This document shows, piece by piece, positions 679 to 33,600 of a DNA stretch of 64,000 nt; the stretch's first letter is position 1; each line of letters starts with the position of its first letter. A program made the translations under genes and the position numbers. The DNA lies in assembly GCF_036588685.1 (NCBI RefSeq), contig NC_086379.1, forward strand, positions 80,972,001 to 81,036,000. The letters are read 5' to 3'. The notes under the pieces are model-generated. The model ran no database searches. It was not told the DNA's origin and worked only from the letters and a program-made list of their open reading frames with translations. Origin of the DNA: Mytilus trossulus (taxonomy: Eukaryota).

Positions 679-3600
679 CCTAAAGGATTACACATTTTGG
701 ATAAAAATGAAATTACAGCAGAGAATCTTGATCACCACCTTTACAAACAACAGAATTTACGGGTAAAATATTTTAGATGCATGTTCCAAAATACACTTTG
801 TCATTCATTATTAAGTTGTAAATATCAAATTATTTAGATTTTTCTGCCATCAAATGTAAAATGTATATGCATACTTCTCACTTGAAATAAATGATGCAAG
901 TGCGACCAAGATTTTACAAACTCACCAAAGATGAGTTTTTATCCAGGGTCATGTAATAACTTGTGATCCCAGTATTTATACTGTTGTCAACTGTTTCTTG
1001 TTTAATGAGAACTTTGACTGGTTAAATTTTTGAGGTTTGGTCTTTTTTTCGAATGCTATATGCAATAAGTCAACTATACTAGGTGTATGGAAGAATTGTT
1101 AGCTGTATATGCCTGCCTGTCATGGTTCATCTGACCTTGACCTCATTTTCACGGTTCATTACTCAGTGTTAAGTTTTTGTTTTTTGGTCTGTTTCTTAAA
1201 ATAAAATCAAAAGGTCTACTTTATTTGTTCTATGGAAGAATTGTTAGCTGTATATGCCTGCCTAGCATGGTTCATCTGACCTTGACCTCATTTTCATGGT
1301 CATTGGTCAATATTTAGTTTTCTTGGTTAATGCTGAGTTTATGTGACAGTTGTAATAAAGCTTTATATTAAAGACTATCAACATAATATCAATGATTAGT
1401 AAGGAAGGCGAAACATTTCAGTGTGTGCACTCTTGTTAATATTAAATTAAGGTAATGTGGTATGATTTCCAATGAGACAAATATATAGAAATGAGCTTAG
1501 TCCAAAGGACCAGGATTTGAACAACTGGTTGTTAAACTACAGCCTTAAACATTTAGCAGTGTTCGAGGAACACAACATAATTAGAAATATAACACAAAGA
1601 CAAAGTGCTTATGTCCCCTTTAAATTAAAATTGCTGTTCCTATTCTTTAGTATTTTGATTTTCTTATTGTATCATTTAGGACAATATTTATTATTCAGAT
1701 CAGAAAAAAATAGTAAACTTGTTATTACTAGACTTTTAAGGATAATTTAATCTTTATCACCCTAACTATTTTTAGCCTCGTTCAAAAGATAAAAGAAATT
1801 TTAACGTTGGGATCCTGGATTCCCTTTGGCCAAATGGAATTGTACCTTATATTGTTAAACATAGTAAGTATAAACTTTATTATTTTACACAATCAGGAGG
1901 GGCATTGACTAGTTTCTTCAAACAGATCCTTTTCACAGGTTTTCAATTAGATTAATTTGAACGGTTTCATGCTTAGTTTTAGGCATGATAAAGTTTTCAC
2001 ATACTTAAAAGTATAAATAATAATTTGTGCTTGCAATTTTATTATTTTAAATTTAAACTCATTTGAAAGTGCTGCAATTTTTTGTAATAGTATATTAAAA
2101 CAAATTCATGAATGGAAATATTTCTAAATGAAAAGAGACTTGCATTCAAGCATTGTATTCATTAATTTACAGGCAATGGTGCATCTAAGACCTTGATAAC
2201 TGATTCAATAGAAGAATTCAATAAACACACATGTGTCCAGTGGATACCAAGAGATGATCAGACAGACTATGTATCATTTGAAGAAGGGGGAGGGTAAGAT
2301 ATCATCCATCAATTAACTTTTATTGAATAATAAGCAACATTTCTATGGCAAGATAATGCAATTTATATATAACAAGTAAGACGAAACACAGTTAAGTTTG
2401 AATAAAACTTGAACATTACATGCAGGGCTCACGCTACCAGGCGACTTGGGCGAAGAAGTCGCTTTCCAGACCGTCACTTCGTTTTCCCCGACCCTCAAAA
2501 GCGAAGACAAGTCGCCCTGTTGTTTACGATACTCGCTTTCAGTCGCTTCTGTCATCGGACATTTTCAATTTTTACCAAGTTCTTTTTATTAATAATCAAA
2601 GAAATTTAGACATAAACGATTAATTATCTCATGAAATGAGGTTGAAGCATCGTTTTTGCAGTGTTTAGCAAGTTATTTGATAAAAATACAACTTTTTATC
2701 ACTTCGTGCACTTCCGAAAGTTCCGGTGCTTGTTACTTGAAAACGTACATCAACCTAACTTTCGGCTGCAAAATAAGTTTGTTACTTCATTTAAACTTGA
2801 TAAAAGTTGCCCCCAGTATATATTCAATCCATTTATTGCATTAAAAACGTCATGGTCCTTTCCAAATAACTTGTCAAACATCGTTTATTTTTGTAAATTT
2901 TCTTGCAATCGTCCGCCATTGTCCGATATCTAAACTACGGATCGGAAACGGACCAACTATGACGGAAATCCGTATTTTTACAAAAATTACTACGGACGCA
3001 CGGATGGAACAGCTGACAGAAGAATATTGATCCCAAAAGGAAAAATTACACATTCCAAACACATTAAAAGACTTTTGGTTACATCTTAATAAACTCATCA
3101 TTGATTGGTGTATATAATTCCCTATAATTTATATGGATTGTTGTAAACTATTGTAAAGTTGCTTAACTCTTATACTATTACACTAATATCAATTTATTAT
3201 GGCCCAGCTTACCTTTACATATCTTTTGATGAGAAACACTGATTTCATACACAAGATATTTTTCCATTAAATTGTAATTGATATATTATAAATTCTTTAA
3301 ATTTAAATTTTTTTTAAATTTTTTTTTAGTGCTAGACATTTAGTTGGTAGTTTCTCACAAGGACCTTAGTAAAATTTAAACAACTTTTAATTTGAAATGT
3401 TACTTTAATTGAATACTCAGATATGAATTGAACAATATAAAAAGAACATTATTTACAAATGACTGTTTATACTACAGTAAAATCCAAATATTGTAGCGCA
3501 CCGCGCGAATGAGCACTTCTCTTTCAAATCTCACCACTTCTCCCTATCAATTTCAAAAAGAGAAGTCACTTCTCCCTATAATTCTGAAGTAGTGTGAGCC

Positions 3601-6600
3601 CTGTACATGTATGTATAAATAAACCAATCACATGTGTTTGCAGTATCAATTTTACCATAAGGAGGTCTCAAAGTTGAAGAAACATAATATGTTCTTAAAC
3701 TTTTCAAAACTTGAGTCTTAATGCAGATGTTTGTCAATTAAACAGTATTATAATCATGTTATAAATGACAATTCTAGATTACAGCTTTCCGTAAAAGCAT
3801 GCAAAGCAAACCATTGATTAACTTGCTTGCTATATTGGTTTGGATGTTTGTAAACAAAAAGTAGGTAGTCTATTTCAGTCTGGAATATGATTGGACAATA
3901 AACATTAAATTCATTTCATGACAATTCTTATTGTTCAATCAAATCTCATTAATAATAACAACAGACTGAAATCCTCCTACCTACTGTTTGCAAACAACCA
4001 AGCAAACATAGCAAGCAAGTTGATCAATGTTTTGTTTTGCATGCTTTTAGAGAAGAACTGTAAAAGTTTTTCAATAAGATGTGTATTGCTACTTTCCTAG
4101 GCAATGTCAATGACGATGTCTTATAAACTGTTATTGTGTTTTACTCTTCTTCCCTGAGAAAAACTATTTTCAGTCAAGTATCTTGATATGGAAAATTATT
4201 ACAAATAGATCTAAGCAATTTATATTTAGAAAAAAGCTTTAATGGTAATTTTTCAGAGATGTGACAATAAAATCAAATGTTGAATTTATTTAATCTTAAT
4301 CAAACAAAATATAATTCAAACCAAGATCAAGAAATAAATCAATTTTGTTGAAAATAAGTTTTTTCTAAACATTTAAGTATTGAAACAATATATCTGTAAC
4401 TTTTCTTGTTTAAAATATTGCCTATGTACCCTCTGCCTTCTGATTACAGATGTGGATCTTGGATTGGTATTGTTGGTGGTAAACAAAGCATTACACTACA
4501 AGATCCTGGATGTATAAACGTAAGTTTTATTAGTTTGACAGAGCAGACAAAACTTATTCAAGCATATACTGTATTGTCACTACTTTGTATAAGTATAACC
4601 ATATAAGTTTTAAAGGGACGAGATGAAAATTGAGAATGGAAATGGGGAATACGTGAAAGAGACAACAATCCGACCAAAGAGCAGATGACAGCTGAAGGCC
4701 ACCAATGGGTCTTCAATGCCGTAAGAAAATCTGCACCTAGAAGTTAACCTCAGCTGGCCCCTAAATAAAAATATTTACTAGTTCAGTAAAAATAGACTTC
4801 ATACTTATCTTCAAAACATAAATGAAATAAATTTAAAAAACATACAAGACCAACAATGGCCAGAGGCCCCTGACTTGGCCATGCATAAAAATGTGATCAG
4901 GTTCCAAATGTTTTGTGAGATCTCAACCTTCCTGCTATACTTCTAGCCAATGTAGAATAAACAAACATACAGTATACACACAGTAAAACTCAGTTATGTA
5001 TTGTATTAGGACTTGTAACATTGCAGCTTTACAGTCTGTCATGAAATGCAGAACCTTAATATATTTTGTTACCTAATATCAAGATTCATATTCAGCAATT
5101 TTGTTCCAGTTTTATTTTTTAAATTCATAAATGCAAATAGATATATAAAATCCTGTTTATATCATCATATTAAATATTTATTTCCAGGTTGAAACAGTGA
5201 TCCATGAAATGTGCCATGCTTTAGGACAGTTACATGAACAAAGCCGTTATGATAGATACCCATATCTCAGAACCAACTGGCAAAATATACCAGTTATGTG
5301 GGCATACAATTTTGATATGGCTTACACAAACAACCATAACCCATATGATCAGCATTCTGTTCTACAGTATAGCTTGTCTGTAAGTATTGAGAATGATCAG
5401 CCATAACCCATATGATCAGCATTCTGTTCTACAGTATAGCTTGTCTGTAAGTATTGAGAATGATCAGCCTTAACCCATATGATCAGCATTCTGTTCTACA
5501 GTATAGCTTGTCTGTAAGTATTGAGTTTGATAAGCAACTGTATAAAATAAAAAAAATATCTAATCACATACCTGCAAATTTTTCAAAATGTCCATGGGGG
5601 TTTTACGTGCAAGATGGCTCTTATAGTCCTGAAAAACCTTCAAGGGGGCCTTCAATTACATTTTAATGTTGTTTTTTGACTTCGTCATACTTTTGAGCCA
5701 TTGTAAAATTACTTGTTTTGTTTATAATTGTGGTCAAAATTGCTCTTTCAAAATTTCCCTTTGGGAGCCTCCATAGGGGAAATCCCACGCTAATAGTGAC
5801 AGTTGGCAGGTATGTAATCATTCCATTTTAAGCCTAAAACTTTGACTGGCTTTGATAAGATTAACACTATCAAAGTGAGTATGCTCAACAGATAAAAATA
5901 TATTTTAAAGATGTCTAAGTGGATTTAAATTTTTTCATGGTATTATTTCTTTCATGTTCAAACTGTGGTTGTCTTGTCTTCAGTTCTTCATTTGGTAAAA
6001 TTCAGTTATTATATTTCCTTCATGTCTTTGCTCATATTTATCTGAGACTGATTGATAGTTGGTTGCTTAACGTCCAGTGGCAAATATTTCATGCATGTTC
6101 ATGACAATTTTTATCTGAGAAAGAATAGTAAACTTTTATAAACTTTATATTTAAAGACCCAAGCAATGTGTATATCCCAGATACTCTCATCTTTGGAGAT
6201 TTTTTTTCATGTATACTGTACATCACTTTTTATTCATCTAATATGTTATATTGGTATTGATAGGGATTATGTTTTAGTACTTATTTAAAAGTAATTATGT
6301 GATTTCAGTCTTTCAGTACCAGTAACCAGAAGAAGAGTATGTACCTGACGGATTCTAAACTTAATTTCCTCACAGAACAGACAAGGAACCTCACATTCTA
6401 TGATATACAAGACATAACTGATACTTACCAGTGTACTAGTAAGTTATTTAACTCAATTCGAATTATCTAAGAAAGTACCTGGTCAAAATAATTTTTCTAA
6501 TAGGTTAGTAGTATAACTCCTCTTTTCCTGACAATTCCCTGAAAGAGTTACGTATATAATATTGTTTATTTTTTGTCATAGCTAAGGTCAGAGAACGATA

Positions 6601-24600: not shown

Positions 24601-27600
24601 ACCATGATTTGTGAATGGTATTTGGTAAGCAGTTGTTCTAGTAATGGCTGTTTTCATTTCCACGAAGATTGTTTGGCCCAGCATCCTCAGTCATTGATTA
24701 TCAACTTGGAGTATTTACATTTTTATTAAAGTATTGCTGTTTAAATTTAAATATTTGCCTTACACTTTCAAAATTATACTCAAATGAGACATATCTTTGT
24801 GTAAACTATTTATTTTTTACTATAAATTTTAAAGTACATTTTGCTATTGTTTTGTTCCGTTTTACAGCTCGCAATTGAAGGTGTAGTAGGTGGAAAAAAA
24901 GGACACATTGCTGTGGATAATATTTTACTGAAACCTGAGGAATGTCGTATGTATTGTTGTTACTTTAGGTTTAAATGACATCTGAATGTTACCTTTGGTT
25001 AATTATTTGTAAGCATAGTCCCAACTGGCCAAATGAGCTATTACAATTAACTTTATTTTAATTATAGGTCAAACAAGGTCATTTTTTTTGTTGATATCAT
25101 GGAAGCATAATCACCTTGAGAGAAGGAAGTTGAGGATTCAATCCGTGGCTGAGTGAAGTCAATAACTAAAGCATGTTTTTTACTGCTTTTCTGCTAAGCA
25201 TGCAGCATTCAGTAGTAACCTCAAAGATCTGTTGGCTTAGAGTCAGAATAATCTAATAATAATTTTTATAGGATGAAATATCTTCTTTTTGAATTTTCTT
25301 GTGAACCAGACTCAGCATGTTTGTTCAGTAGAGAGCATGGTTCCTGTCTCTCTAACATATTCTCATACCAAACATTAATATTTGCATGTAATATTTTACC
25401 AATCAATCCATCCATCATTTTATGGCCCCATCAAAGATTCTATATACTGACACTACAGCTTTATATTTAAATGAAAATTTTTTTTTTTATTTTTCTTAAT
25501 TACAAAATGGTGTAATGGTTACAAAAATAATAAACAGAATGCTTTTTTGAAACTTTAAAGACACTTTTAAGACGAGTAAAATGTGGATAAGAAATATAGG
25601 ATGGTTAGATATACTACTAACCTGTGTTAACTACTAAATAGTATCCTTTTGTTTTAGCACCCTGTGATGTTGAACCCTGTCAGAATGGAGGAGTTTGTTC
25701 TGTGACAGGGGATACGTACACATGTACCTGTCCTGCAGGATTTGGTGGTCCTAACTGTCAGTATATAGGTATGTATATCTACATAGTGTTATGATTGGTG
25801 ATTCTTACACATGTACCTGTCCTACAGGATTTGGTGGTCCTAACTGTCAGTATATAGGTATGTATATCTACATAGTGTTATGATTGGTGATTCTTACACA
25901 TGTACCTGTCCTGCAGGATTTGGTGGTCCTAATTGTCAGTATATAGGTATGTATATGTACAGAGAATTATGATTGGTGATTCTTACACATGTACCTGTCC
26001 TGCAGGATTTGGTGGTCCTAATTGTCAGTATATAGGTATGTATATCTTCATAGTGTTATGATTGATGATTCTTACACATGTACCTGTCCTACAGGATTTG
26101 GTGGTCCTAATTGTCAGTATATAGGTATGTATATGTACAGAGAATTATGATTGGTGATTCTTACACATGTACCTGTCCTGCAGGATTTGGTGGTCCTAAT
26201 TGTCAGTATATAGGTATGTATATCTTCATAGTGTTATGATTGATGATTCTTACACATGTACCTGTCCTGCAGGATTTGGTGGTCCTAATTATCAGTATAT
26301 AGGTATGTATATGTACAGAGAATTATGATTGGTGATTCTTACACATGTACCTGTCATACAGGATTTGGTGGTCCTAACTGTCAGTATATAGGTATGTATA
26401 TCTACATAGTGTTATGATTGGTGATTCTTACACATGTACCTGTCCTACAGGATATGGTGGTCCTAATTGTCAGTATATAGGTATGTATATCTTCATAGTG
26501 TTATGATTGGTGATTCTTACACATGTACCTGTCCTACAGGATTTGGTGGTCCTAATTGTCAGTATATAGGTATGTATATCTTCATAGTGTTATGATTGGT
26601 GATTCTTACACATGTACCTGTCCTACAGGATTTGGTGGTCCTAATTGTCAGTATATAGGTATGTATATTAACATAGTGTTATGATTGGTGATTCTTACAC
26701 ATGTACCTGTCCTACAGGATTTGGTGGTCCTAATTGTCAGTATATAGGTATGTATATCTTCATAGTGTTATGATTGGTGATTCTTACACATGTACCTGTC
26801 CTACAGGATTTGGTGGTCCTAATTGTCAGTATATAGGTATGTATATCTTCATAGTGTTATGATTGGTGATTCTTACACATGTACCTGTCCTACAGGATTT
26901 GGTGGTCCTAATTGTCAGTATATAGGTATGTATATCTACATAGTGTTATGATTGGTGATTCTTACACATGTACCTGTCCTACAGGATATGGTGTCCTAAT
27001 TGTCAGTATATAGGTATGTATATCTTCATAGTGTTATGATTGGTGATTCTTACACATGAACCTGTCCTGCAGGATTTGGTGGTCCTAATTGTCAGTATAT
27101 AGGTATGTATATCTACATAGTGTTTTGATTGGTGATTCTTACACATGTACCTGTCCTGCAGGATATGGTGGTCCTAATTGTCAGTATATAGGTATGTATA
27201 TGTACAGAGAATTATGATTGGTGATTCTTACACATGTACCTGTCCTGCAGGATTTGGTGGTCCTAATTGTCAGTATATAGGTATGTATATCTACATATTG
27301 TTATGATTGGTGATTCTTACACATGAACCTGTCCTGCAGGATTTGGTGGTCCTAATTGTCAGTATATAGGTATGTATATCTACATAGTGTTTTGATTGGT
27401 GATTCTTACACATGTACCTGTCCTGCAGGATATGGTGGTCCTAACTGTCAGTATATAGGTATGTATATCTTCATAGTGTTATGATTGGTGATTCTTACAC
27501 ATGTACCTGTCCTGCAGGATATGGTGGTCCTAACTGTCAGTATATAGGTATGTATATCTTCATAGTGTTATGATTGGTGATTCTTACACATGTACCTGTC

Positions 27601-30600
27601 CTACAGGATATGGTGGTCCTAATTGTCAGTATATAGGTATGTATATCTTCATAGTGTTATGATTGGTGATTCTTACACATGTACCTGTCCTGCAGGATTT
27701 GGTGGTCCTAACTGTCAGTATATAGGTATGTATATCTACATAGTGTTATGATTGGTGATTCTTACACATGTACCTGTCCTGCAGGATTTGGTGGTCCTAA
27801 CTGTCAGTATATAGGTATGTATATTAACATAGTGTTATGATTGGTGATTCTTACACATGTACCTGTCCTACAGGATTTGGTGGTCCTAATTGTCAGTATA
27901 TAGGTATGTATATCTACATAGTGTTATGATTGGTGATTCTTACACATGTACCTGTCCTGCAGGATTTGGTGGTCCTAACTGTCAGTATATAGGTATGTAT
28001 ATTAACATAGTGTTATGATTGGTGATTCTTACACATGTACCTGTCCTACAGGATTTGGTGGTCCTAATTGTCAGTATATAGGTATGTATATCTACATAGT
28101 GTTATGATTGGTGATTCTTACACATGTACCTGTCCTGCAGGATTTGGTGGTCCTAACTGTCAGTATATAGGTATGTATATCTACATAGTGTTATGATTGG
28201 TGATTCTTACACATGTACCTGTCCTGCAGGATTTGGTGGTCCTAACTGTCAGTATATAGGTATGTATATTAACATAGTGTTATGATTGGTGATTCTTACA
28301 CATGTACCTGTCCTACAGGATATGGTGGTCCTAATTGTCAGTATATAGGTATGTATATCTTCATAGTGTTATGATTGGTGATTCTTACACATGTACCTGT
28401 CCTACAGGATATGGTGGTCCTAATTGTCAGTATATAGGTATGTATATCTTCATAGTGTTATGATTGGTGATTCTTACACATGTACCTGTCCTGCAGGATT
28501 TGGTGGTCCTAACTGTCAGTATATAGGTATGTATATGTACATAGTGTTATGATTGGTGATTCTTACACATGTACCTGTCCTACAGGATATGGTGGTCCTA
28601 ACTGTCAGTATATAGGTATGTATATGTACAGAGAATTATGATTGGTGATTCTTACACATGTACCTGTCCTGCAGGATTTGGTGGTCCTAACTGTCAGTAT
28701 ATAGGTATGTATATCTACATAGTGTTATGATTGGTGATTCTTACACATGTACCTGTCCTGCAGGATTTGGTGGTCCTAACTGTCAGTATATAGGTATGTA
28801 TATTAACATAGTGTTATGATTGGTGATTCTTACACATGTACCTGTCCTGCAGGATTTGGTGGTCCTAACTGTCAGTATATAGGTATGTATATTAACATAG
28901 TGTTATGATTGGTGATTCTTACACATGTACCTGTCCTACAGGATTTGGTGGTCCTAATTGTCAGTATATAGGTATGTATATCTACATAGTGTTATGATTG
29001 GTGATTCTTACACATGTACCTGTCCTACAGGATATGGTGGTCCTAATTGTCAGTATATAGGTATGTATATCTTCATAGTGTTATGATTGGTGATTCTTAC
29101 ACATGTACCTGTCCTGCAGGATTTGGTGGTCCTAACTGTCAGTATATAGGTATGTATATGTACAGAGAATTATGATTGGTGATTCTTACACATGTACCTG
29201 TCCTGCAGGATTTGGTGGTCCTAACTGTCAGTATATAGGTATGTATATCTTCATAGTGTTATGATAGGTGATTCTTACACATGTACCTGTCCTGCAGGAT
29301 ATGGTGGTCCTTACTGTCAGTATATAGGTATGTATATCTACATAGTGTTATGATTGGTGATTCTTACACATGTACCTGTCCTGCAGGATTTGGTGGTCCT
29401 AACTGTCAGTATATAGGTATGTATATGTACAGAGAATTATGATTGGTGATTCTTAACAGTAATGACCCTATAGTATTTTGTTGATACTGACTTTCAGAGT
29501 ACAGGTGTGTATCTACACAAAGCTTTGTGACAAGATATTCTTAACGGTATTACTTTCATTAAGTATTTGTTAAAAAGGGGGGGGGAGAAAAAAAGTATTT
29601 GGTAAAACTTACTGTCATTATATAGGAGTTTATCTTCACAGAGCTCTGTGACAAGATAGTCTTTCTTACCTGTGTGACTATCCTTTAGAATGTAGTGATA
29701 CGGACTGCCAATACCTATTAGAGCTTTGTGACATGATATTTTTAACTGTTTGGGTGGATTTGTTAAAATTGGAATGATAAATGTTATAAATCATTTTCCA
29801 TTCATTGTTATTGTTATTGATATGAGAAGACTTTTCATTTTGTTTTAGATGCTGAAGGATATTGCTCCTTTCAGATGTCTGATCCAGATTGTTTCCTCAT
29901 ACAAGATGTTACAGATAATTTTGATTGGTCAAGAGATAGTGTAAGTTAACTTGTTTACTTAATGCCATCTTTTTGCCCCACCTACGAAAAAAGTACACAT
30001 GTGCCCTATGATATGATCTTTCTAATTTTAATGCAAAAATAGTGTTTTTACCCCAAGTTCAAGGCTCACTGAACATAGAAAATGATAGTGCAAATTGGTC
30101 AAGGTAGTTTTTGATGAAGTTGAAGTCCAATCAACTTGAAACTTAGTATACATGTTCCCTGTGATATGATCTTTCTAATTTGAATGCCAAATTAGAGTTT
30201 TTACCCCAATTTCACGGTCCACTAAACACAGAAAATGATAGTGCAAGTGGGGCATCCGTGTACTATGGACACATTCTTGTTTTGATAAATCATTTCATAG
30301 AAATTGATCCAATATCCACCCATTTAGGTGCAAATCATATCTCTGGCCTTACATTGATACTGTGCTATGTACGCAATGTTTCAGGTTATTTCGGAAATGT
30401 TTTTATTCCAGGGAAACCTTCATCAGAGACCACCCCTATTGTTTTTGTTTTGATTTGTTTTGATTTTTTGATTTTTGATTTTTAGTTTATTTCTTTTTTA
30501 TTTCTTTTTTATTACTATTTTACTTTAATTTTTTTTAATTCTAAATATTTTAAACATTTTCTGAATTGTGTTTCTGTTTCTTTTGAACCCTATTGATAGG

Positions 30601-33600
30601 TTTTTATGGAACTTAGCACCTATTGTAGAATCCGTTTTGATAAGATGCCAGTATTTCCTGAATACTTTTTGAAGTTTTTCTGCTTGAGGATGATAATTTG
30701 TAATGAATGATACATTGTATTTATTTTCAACTTTGTTCTTTTTCTTTAATTTAATTTGTCTGTCTTGGAATTTGATTTTTGATAGAATTTGTTCTACCAA
30801 TTTCCGTTTATATCCTCTTACTAACAGTTTTTCAATAAAGAGATTTTTTCTGGTTTGAAATTCACTTTCATTGTTGGTGTTTCTAAGTATACGAATGCCT
30901 TCGCCTTTAATAAAAGATTTAAAGTTTGAGATGGGATGGTTTGAGTTTTTGTGATATTGGAATTTTTCAGTTTTCTTTGTAAAACATTTCAGGTCTAAAA
31001 CACCAGTATTTTTGAAGCGTTCGCCCTTGAAGATTTCTAGGTCTAGAAATTTTATGGACTGTTTATTGCATTCGTAAGTGAACTTTAGCAGGTCATGTTG
31101 TTTATTTGCATTTTCAAACATAAAGTCAATTTCAGACTCTTTTGCTTTCACCATTAGAAGTCCATCATCTCTCATTCTTTTATGAAAAATTATTTTTTCA
31201 GAGATTGGAGAGTTTTTTAGGATTGAATTTATGTGATTGTAAATAGCAATGTCACATATTTCAGGGGAAGCTGTTGCTCCCATTGATGCTCCAATGATTT
31301 GTCGATATGAATTTCCATGAAAGGTAAATTCATTATTGGAAAGGATGAGTTTTGTTATTTCAATCAAAAAATTGTTGGTAGGTTTTGTTACAGAATATTC
31401 AATTGTGTCATGTTCATCAAGCGCTTTTTGTAATGCTTCTGTGATTTCTTCAAATCTGAGATTGGTATATATAGTGATGTTATATCATATGTAACAAGTA
31501 GTACATTATTATCAAATGTACAGTTTTCAATATTTCTGATTAAGTCACCTGTATCAGATATGTATGTTTTTTGTGTTTTCACTAAGGGAAGCAAGAAATA
31601 ATCTAAGTATCTCCCTAACCTTTCAAGTGGTCCATTACACTGTGATATTATTGGTCTACCAGGGACATTTATAGTTTTTATTTGATTGTTCTCGTTTTCA
31701 ATGTTTTGTAAAACTTCACGGTCTAGTTTGTGAATTTTAGGGAGGAAGTATGCAAAAGGTGTTTTTATATAATTTTGTTCATTTTTAATGTATTTGAAAG
31801 ATATTTCATCAATACAGTTTTCTTCTTTCATTTTGTAGATTATTTCATATACCTTTTTCTAAGTGTTTTTAAGATTTATATCTTGGATTTGTTCATAATG
31901 TATGTTATCATTCAATTGTTTTTCACCTTCTTCTAGGTAGTCAGAAAGATTTTGAATGACTGTTACATTGTTTTTATCTGCTTTATGAATGATTATATTT
32001 TCATCGTGTTTTAGATTTTTCAGACAATTCCTTTCTTGTAGTGAAAGGTTAAATTCAGTTTTAGGGACATATTTAGATAATTCCATTTTCGTATAGAAAA
32101 TATATTTTTCAATAGGGTTGTCGGCAAATGTCGGCACCGAAAATTTTGATTTCTCCTTGAAAGGATGAATTTTACTGTGTATATTTCGATTTTCAAGGAA
32201 AAAGTATGAGAGTCTCAAATTTCTTTCCGTTTTTTTAAAATCTTTCATTATTTGTTTTGTGGATGTTTTTGTTGTTGGAACAAAGTTTAGTCCTTTAGCA
32301 AGAACTAATGTTTCTGGATGTGATAATGTTTTAGAGGATAGGTTCAGCACAAATTGTTTTGCAATTTTAAGCTTGATTTCTTTTTTATGTAGTTTTATTT
32401 TATTTTTAACTGCTTTGAATTTTTCAATGTTTTTATACTTTTTCTTGTTTTTATTAAGTCTTCTATGTTTTCCCATGCTTTTATTTTTGCATTGGTAATA
32501 ATTTTATTTTGTAGTATTTCATATACATAAATATGATTCTGTATCACTATTCTCATTGGATGTTTTTAATTGTGTAATGACCACAACACAAGGGGTGTGT
32601 CCTTCTTCATTATTGTTTGGTCAGTATCTATAATTGCTATCTAGATCAATCGTGGATACGCAGTAGGCAATAAATAAACAAACCTAGGGATAAAATATTC
32701 CCAGGTTTATTGATTTACTGTCATTAATTTGCAATATATCAACAATCCAAGTAAAAGCAAAGGTAGAGTTTAGGTATTTCAGTAACCATTTGATAAAAGA
32801 CAAAAGTTTGATATAGATTCTATATGGTTTAAATAATTTCATAGAAATTGATCCAATATCCACCCATTTAGGTGCGAATCATATCTCTGGCCTAATTTTC
32901 ATAGAAATTGATCCAATATCCACCCATTTAGGTGCGAATCATATCTCTGGCCTATCCATATGGATTAAAACGAACAGTAATTACAAATTTCATAATTATT
33001 TCATGTGAGATAAATCTGTAATTATTACTAATTAAACCATATCGAATCTATATCAAACTTTTGTCTTTTATCAAATGGTTACTGAAATACATAAACTCTA
33101 CTTTTGCTTTTACTTGGATTGTTGATATATTGCAAATTAATGACAGTAAATCAATAAATAATATTTTATCCCTAGGTTTGTTTATTTATTGCCTACTGCG
33201 TTTCATAGAAATTGATCCAATATCCACCCATTTAGGTGCGAATCATATCTCTGGCCTAATTTCATAGAAATTGATCCAATATCCACCCATTTAGGTGCGA
33301 ATCATATCTCTTGTTATTGATCTAAAGCATACTTGTAGAAATTCATAAACTCTTAATAAAGTAGATACAAAAACAGTATATGGAAAACTTATAAAACAAC
33401 ATTTCTTTTATTTCAAAATATTACTGACTTCAAAAGAATGAATTAAAAAACACAGCTTGCATTTATGAATACTTGAAATTTTTATCAACTTTAAACTTTG
33501 AACTTTAAAGATGCTTTTCCCGTTTGAATGGTTTTACACTAGTAATTTTGGAGCCCTTTATAGCTTGTTGTTTAGTGTGAGCCAAGGCTCTGTGTTGAAG

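Follow-up and report, generated by a model that had tools for sequence, protein, structure and literature searches.

Penelope-like elements without an endonuclease at internal chromosomal sites: a decayed intronic copy in Mytilus trossulus and its intact relatives

We analyzed a 64,000-nt stretch of the Mytilus trossulus genome (contig NC_086379.1, forward-strand positions 80,972,001 to 81,036,000; hereafter the window, whose own numbering is used throughout). A Penelope-like retrotransposon (PLE) lies in it on the minus strand, and is flanked on both sides by exons (EGF, MAM and TSP1) of a gene on the plus strand, so that the copy is intronic, as the original prediction had proposed, and antisense to its host. 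The element, here assigned to family A, is a dead copy, and the whole insertion spans 30293-33311 rather than the 30432-32476 first reported. It belongs to a branch of PLEs whose reverse transcriptase (RT) is not followed by a GIY-YIG endonuclease (EN), and the younger members of this branch, found at internal chromosomal sites, are the main subject of this work.

In the direction of its transcription, the window copy has a 5' untranslated region (UTR; 32477-32835) and an RT frame that runs from an ATG at 32476 to a stop at 30525-30527 in three pieces, and not as the single open reading frame (ORF) first described. The first piece (31859-32476) encodes a basic N-terminal helix and the GLNF and ADKN motifs and closes with a stop codon in frame at 31859-31861; the second (31466-31858) covers the RT fingers to motif A and is ended by a 2-bp insertion near 31466; the third (30525-31465), with one codon missing near 30952, encodes the palm and thumb and carries motif C as HKRMRDDG at 31161-31184. 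This catalytic loop and the basic, lysine-rich N-terminal leader had both been read correctly. The stop, the insertion and the missing codon are all absent from the contigs of other samples, indicating that the window copy is decayed. Pfam gave no match for the three pieces or for P0001, a 97% identical protein from another sample.

The frame is followed by an A-rich 3' UTR remnant (30432-30524), a full-size type I hammerhead with CUGAUGA and GAAAC cores and three stems (30345-30431), and a 57-nt tail (30293-30349). The ribozyme is predicted to cut after GUA, between 30350 and 30349, just before the tail. Its fold has a z-score of only -1.5, and Rfam returned no match for it at the gathering score. 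The 3' end of the tail is the fixed end of the element, and would be where reverse transcription started. Upstream of the 5' UTR lie two tandem copies of the tail (32837-32955), possibly left by repeated re-initiation, then an inverted copy of the 5' UTR on the plus strand (32941-33204) and two further tandem tails on the minus strand (33201-33311), which form the outer boundary of the insertion. Tail dimers were also seen at L003 and L004. In agreement with the earlier description, no target site duplication (TSD) was found at the window copy, the best word common to both ends being 5 nt long and offset.

It had been argued that the ORF stops just after the thumb, at KKN*, about 95 nt from the hammerhead, leaving no room for a GIY-YIG domain. 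Other family copies hold 231 extra bases at 30569-30573, the junction of a deletion with AAACA microhomology that occurs in the window copy only. This deletion removed the true stop and produced both the KKN* end and the short gap to the hammerhead, which is 93 nt in the window copy and 335 nt in undeleted family copies. Among the 17 family A ends found, 14 read ...K(RT/RA)I(K/Q)*, two stop earlier, and KKN* is seen in the window alone. The argument from space thus leaned on a copy-specific lesion, but its conclusion holds: the family terminus is KRTIK*, 335 nt before the hammerhead, and undeleted copies also stop right after the thumb and have no GIY-YIG domain. RMRDD is present in all eight family A copies that cover motif C (three from one array) and in P0001.

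These data bear on a rival explanation, that the missing EN and the MRDD motif are decay products of the window copy, whose parent was an ordinary EN-bearing PLE. The copy is indeed decayed, its reported C-terminus is a deletion product, and some EN-less proteins do occur scattered inside EN-bearing groups (see below); the undeleted copies nevertheless end after the thumb, as does the whole branch, and RMRDD is fixed across copies and samples. For family A this explanation is refuted, and we give it next to no weight overall. The finding named beforehand as a refutation of the original prediction, GIY-YIG together with YxDD in further copies, was not made in family A, in the EN profile search or in the 53-protein branch presented below.

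Family A is one of several nuclease-free families in one genome, where B, C, E and F are intact and G and H are known from pieces. Intact relatives of the window element are about 640-660 amino acids long and end right after the thumb. We built an EN profile from 44 C-termini of EN-bearing PLEs, which scored 169 bits on an EN-bearing control. In nine stretches from seven nuclease-free families it did not match the GIY-YIG core; only a thumb-end motif shared with EN-bearing PLEs was matched (best 22 bits, profile positions 2-61). The N-terminus of these proteins is a 40-residue basic helix, again with no GIY-YIG according to the EN profile. A model of the family B protein (predicted local distance difference test score 91.7) contains the RT, the thumb and N-terminal helices only, and its top Foldseek matches are telomerase reverse transcriptases (TERTs; E 1e-10), all listed fold matches being polymerases. 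An unrecognized nicking activity in the protein, or an EN carried by a separate RNA of the family, might explain the wide spread of young copies, and family F does have an additional ORF; yet the 2564-bp unit of family C has no second long ORF, and the model and profile leave us considering such a hidden nuclease very improbable. The family F ORF (295 amino acids, upstream of the RT, G000:C2 ~43878570-43879460; L067, L102) has an RG-rich tail and recalls ORF1 of Athena and Coprina.

Motif C reads RMRDD in families A and E, RMKDD in B and RYRDD in C, and none of the three catalytic aspartates varies among 45 sequences. The MRDD motif had been called non-canonical. It is fixed in family A, but it is less odd than it appeared: close relatives have RFRDD or RYRDD and human TERT has RLVDD, so that the loss of the tyrosine is not striking. 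To place the family, 134 proteins of at least 480 amino acids, counted together with three families of the genome, were collected; 123 were classed as EN-bearing (52) or EN-less (71) and 11 were dropped as cut short. A maximum likelihood tree was made from 97 proteins (all 71 EN-less ones and every second EN-bearing one), with no named references or outgroup and hence a weak root. In this tree 53 rows form one branch (Shimodaira-Hasegawa-like approximate likelihood ratio test support 94) without any EN-bearing member. Since (Y/F/M)(R/K)DD is present in 50 of these 53 rows, and the nine M(R/K)DD rows form a sub-branch with support 100, we regard the arginine as the mark of the branch and the methionine as a variant of the sub-branch. 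As a speculation, the arginine of RxRDD may help to hold an unpaired primer. When a profile of the branch was used for searching, the 45 best matches lacked PF01541 and GIY-YIG proteins appeared from rank 46 on; the few named proteins among the matches are from oyster. Further EN-less proteins are scattered among EN-bearing ones in the tree, suggesting that the EN was lost more than once or that some of these proteins are truncated.

The nearest EN-bearing relatives are of the Neptune type, with a CxxC linker and GIY-YIG, and the nuclease-free branch is likely Neptune-derived. Its RT motifs and thumb-end motif match, by eye, the Neptune alignment printed by Craig et al. 2021 (PMC8557442), and a hammerhead, a tail and tandem or inverted inserts are common to both. 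Unlike the branch, Neptune has the linker and GIY-YIG, (Y/F)(I/L)DD in motif C and, as seen in the Neptune-type elements of this genome, (TA)n targeting. A C-terminal GIY-YIG with a CX2-5CxxC linker, as in Neptune, was not found in the nuclease-free PLEs, nor were the N-terminal GIY-YIG and CxC motif of Naiad/Chlamys; they carry ADKN and no C-terminal GIY-YIG, and so differ from Hydra, which has DKT, RWK and, C-terminally, GIY-YIG. Another EN-less group, around P0019, is absent from the top 120 matches of the branch profile, scoring below EN-bearing proteins, and in the weakly rooted tree without named references P0019 is nevertheless sister, on a long branch with support 86. This group is possibly Coprina-like. 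P0019 together with P0309-P0400 makes up a second large set of PLE RTs of 500-700 amino acids, mostly without GIY-YIG, one of them named from a coral.

Nuclease loss in PLEs is already published, for MjPLE01, Athena and Coprina. According to PMC8557442, EN-bearing PLEs move inside chromosomes and those without EN as a rule stay at chromosome ends, with EN-minus families occasionally arising inside Neptune and Chlamys, for which MjPLE01 is named. This EN-less, Neptune-like element of the kuruma shrimp, a candidate relative of the branch, is cited as proof of EN loss within EN-bearing clades (PMC8557442, PMC13159263); the descriptions treat it as an isolated case, and in one paper it is placed with Coprina, which is telomere-associated. 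Athena and Coprina resemble the branch in having an RT without EN, a hammerhead, an ADKN-like motif, an upstream ORF as in family F and, if our reading of the branch is right, a primer that is a 3'-OH already present; but they use reverse-complement telomeric repeats to join telomeric overhangs (PMC8557442), whereas the nuclease-free elements examined have no such repeats and sit at internal sites. In the literature searched, including the available parts of PMC8557442, we found no description of a dispersed EN-less PLE branch in bivalves, although some families may already be filed in Repbase or in that paper; RMRDD, RFRDD and RYRDD were not found in the part of its supplement that was searched.

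The structure of the inserts is of the PLE type, with tails and tandem or inverted units. Families A, B, C, E, F, G and H all have a hammerhead fold with conserved cores, its cleavage being a prediction, and in each family unit examined a short fixed tail (56-59 nt in A and C) comes after the hammerhead motif. Genomic copies terminate at the last bases of the tail. Four copies (L067, L072, L215, L220) start exactly at the predicted ribozyme cut, and tail-only inserts begin there. The Poseidon element PAc of Anolis initiates inside its RNA, without target homology, and has a fixed tail after the hammerhead (Frangieh et al. 2024, PMC11167929); it differs in cutting its own AT-rich target with GIY-YIG and in that none of its reads ended at the ribozyme cut. 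In the family C unit L063 the hammerhead directly follows the stop codon and has an AT-rich insert of about 130 nt in stem II. A shared 5' end is seen in the family C copies L068, L074 and L077; it lies at a TCAG motif, some 60 nt ahead of the ATG, and might be either a splice acceptor or the start of transcription.

Insertion sites and TSDs were tabulated, as had been proposed, mainly in family C, a young sister family. The family has about 35 loci; 26 of its 35 ORF starts open an intact frame of 649 amino acids with 0-7 differences, and 92 exact family C tails lie on many chromosomes; the family is very young and was recently active. The telomeric motif is TTAGGG. No repeat of (TTAGGG)2 or longer was found in the family C regions, in the family C unit or in the window element, and the sites are internal, spread along the chromosomes. 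The published chromosome-end rule is broken by an EN-minus branch that is diverse and whose intact, nearly identical copies occupy dozens of internal sites. Sites are also poor in TSDs: among 27 family C sites, 17 lack a word of 5 nt or more common to both ends and the other ten have offset words of 5-8 nt, and the paralogous empty site of C5:0.12 Mb indicates a loss of about 3 bp and no duplication.

As a control we read by eye Neptune-type EN-bearing loci of the same genome (20 taken, 17 resolvable). A (TA)n run stands at the 3' junction in 16/17 of them, compared with 1/49 non-self 3' junctions in family C and 1/30 in family A (background 0.6%); the Fisher p value for family C against the control is 3e-13, a figure overstated, as the junctions are not independent. 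This comparison speaks against semi-autonomous families that have their own RT but borrow nicks from an EN-bearing PLE or a long interspersed nuclear element (LINE) of the same cell. Possible donors do exist, since intact Neptune-type copies are abundant (150 scored of 2884 candidates, with frames of up to 934 amino acids), and a family A mini-insert, L216, has a 6-bp duplicated word. On the other side, family C junctions show no base consensus and 50 EN-bearing loci contain no piece of a nuclease-free family. We therefore hold borrowed nicks to be an unlikely source of these insertions.

A further feature is seen at composite loci, which account for 10 of the about 35 family C loci (eight checked at base level, two by tblastn). 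Six joints show a truncated family C end on which family F, G or H begins, precisely there and at its own tail; in several reverse joints it is family C that begins, on a truncated piece of F, G or H. Flank duplications of 332, 706, 246, 537 and 169 bp had been considered as giant TSDs; they proved to be pieces of other nuclease-free PLE families, and this reading was rejected. Long flank duplications were retained in three cases: 224 bp (matched to a paralogue) and 111 bp in family C, and 40 bp in family A (L210). In addition, an identical 2724-bp segment adjoins two family C arrays in opposite orientation (G000:C12, 16.98 and 18.45 Mb; L080, L137, L063, L138). As both arrays end in assembly gaps, it is uncertain whether a target duplication of this great length was split here, be it through a flip in scaffolding or a real inversion.

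Altogether, the RT of the nuclease-free families probably primes on a pre-existing DNA 3'-OH, offered by a break, a replication fork or another complementary DNA (cDNA). The RNA would be cut by its own hammerhead, given that a number of copies start right where the cut is predicted, and the RT would initiate internally, at the end of the tail, as measured for Poseidon. Any free DNA 3'-OH might serve as primer: a chromosome break, the end of a stalled fork, or the fresh cDNA end of the same or another nuclease-free family. If both sides of a break were extended and then joined, tail-out inserts with few bases lost would result, and a one-ended break rejoined upstream would give the rare flank duplications of 40-2724 bp. 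The original prediction of an EN-independent lineage inserting at internal breaks is borne out for the EN-less branch and, from family C, for its non-telomeric and TSD-poor sites; the breaks themselves we infer. In its widest form, in which an old and diverse animal PLE branch abandoned DNA cutting, adds cDNA to free internal 3' ends in the manner of telomerase, and lets its families take over each other's cDNA ends at one break, the reading is about an even bet.

Several points weigh against priming on pre-existing ends. Hammerhead cleavage is dispensable in vitro for Poseidon (PMC11167929), and the genome has many intact EN-bearing PLEs. The sole read-derived empty allele (one contig, at C10:45.84 Mb) shows a short (TA)n, a duplication of about 8 bp and filler bases; the first two features fit a Neptune nick and count for borrowed nicks. 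Our comparison of nick donors covers the Neptune type, and the nucleases of Penelope/Poseidon, Naiad, Hydra and LINEs would be further candidate donors. Most target data come from family C, some of whose arrays were compared in part, rather than from family A, the family of the window, and the junctions include segmental duplicates, EN-bearing loci of few families and about 7/49 junctions that lie on other PLE families. Inverted ends are found in the EN-bearing control too, as they are in rotifer Penelopes, where one EN-bearing insertion has no TSD (PMC3846280), and so neither inverted ends nor the absence of TSDs alone proves EN independence. Finally, almost no RNA reads fell on the element in one run, about 6% of which was read, which does not imply silence. 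Tail-out inserts had been taken as proof of break healing, an argument weakened by the inverted EN-bearing controls; still, 11 of these have a second arm that continues beyond the tail point, which is where the arms of family C stop.

A further close system is telomerase, whose RT is the best structural match, likewise has no tyrosine in motif C, and adds repeats to a DNA end in a way that the tandem tails resemble; it differs in that the template of the branch is the element's own RNA and its sites are internal. With its compact RT of about 650 amino acids and a defined RNA, the branch offers a direct way of asking if unpaired DNA ends can serve as the starting point of a telomerase-like RT, which matters for the origin of telomerase and for RNA-templated break repair. 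In the widest form of our reading, the branch would represent, as an extant and non-telomeric model, the ancestor without endonuclease that PLEs share with telomerase; the copy in the window is no more than a dead member of it.

Three further observations were made. An 89-bp tandem array in the window (27477-29450, plus strand) is built from parts of an EGF-domain exon and its splice donor, repeated over and over inside the host EGF/MAM/TSP1 gene. In L022 (2309-3057), a unit of about 460 bp that comprises the 3' UTR, the hammerhead and the tail of family A is tandemly repeated; it is retrozyme-like and derives from the element. An inverted family B fragment is centered in a palindromic element resembling a miniature inverted-repeat transposable element (MITE), with (TTTTCGCG)n repeats (L081 ~2735-4928, L082-L100); the fragment gives about 22 near-identical ORF matches on many chromosomes, which suggests that it was spread by the MITE-like element.

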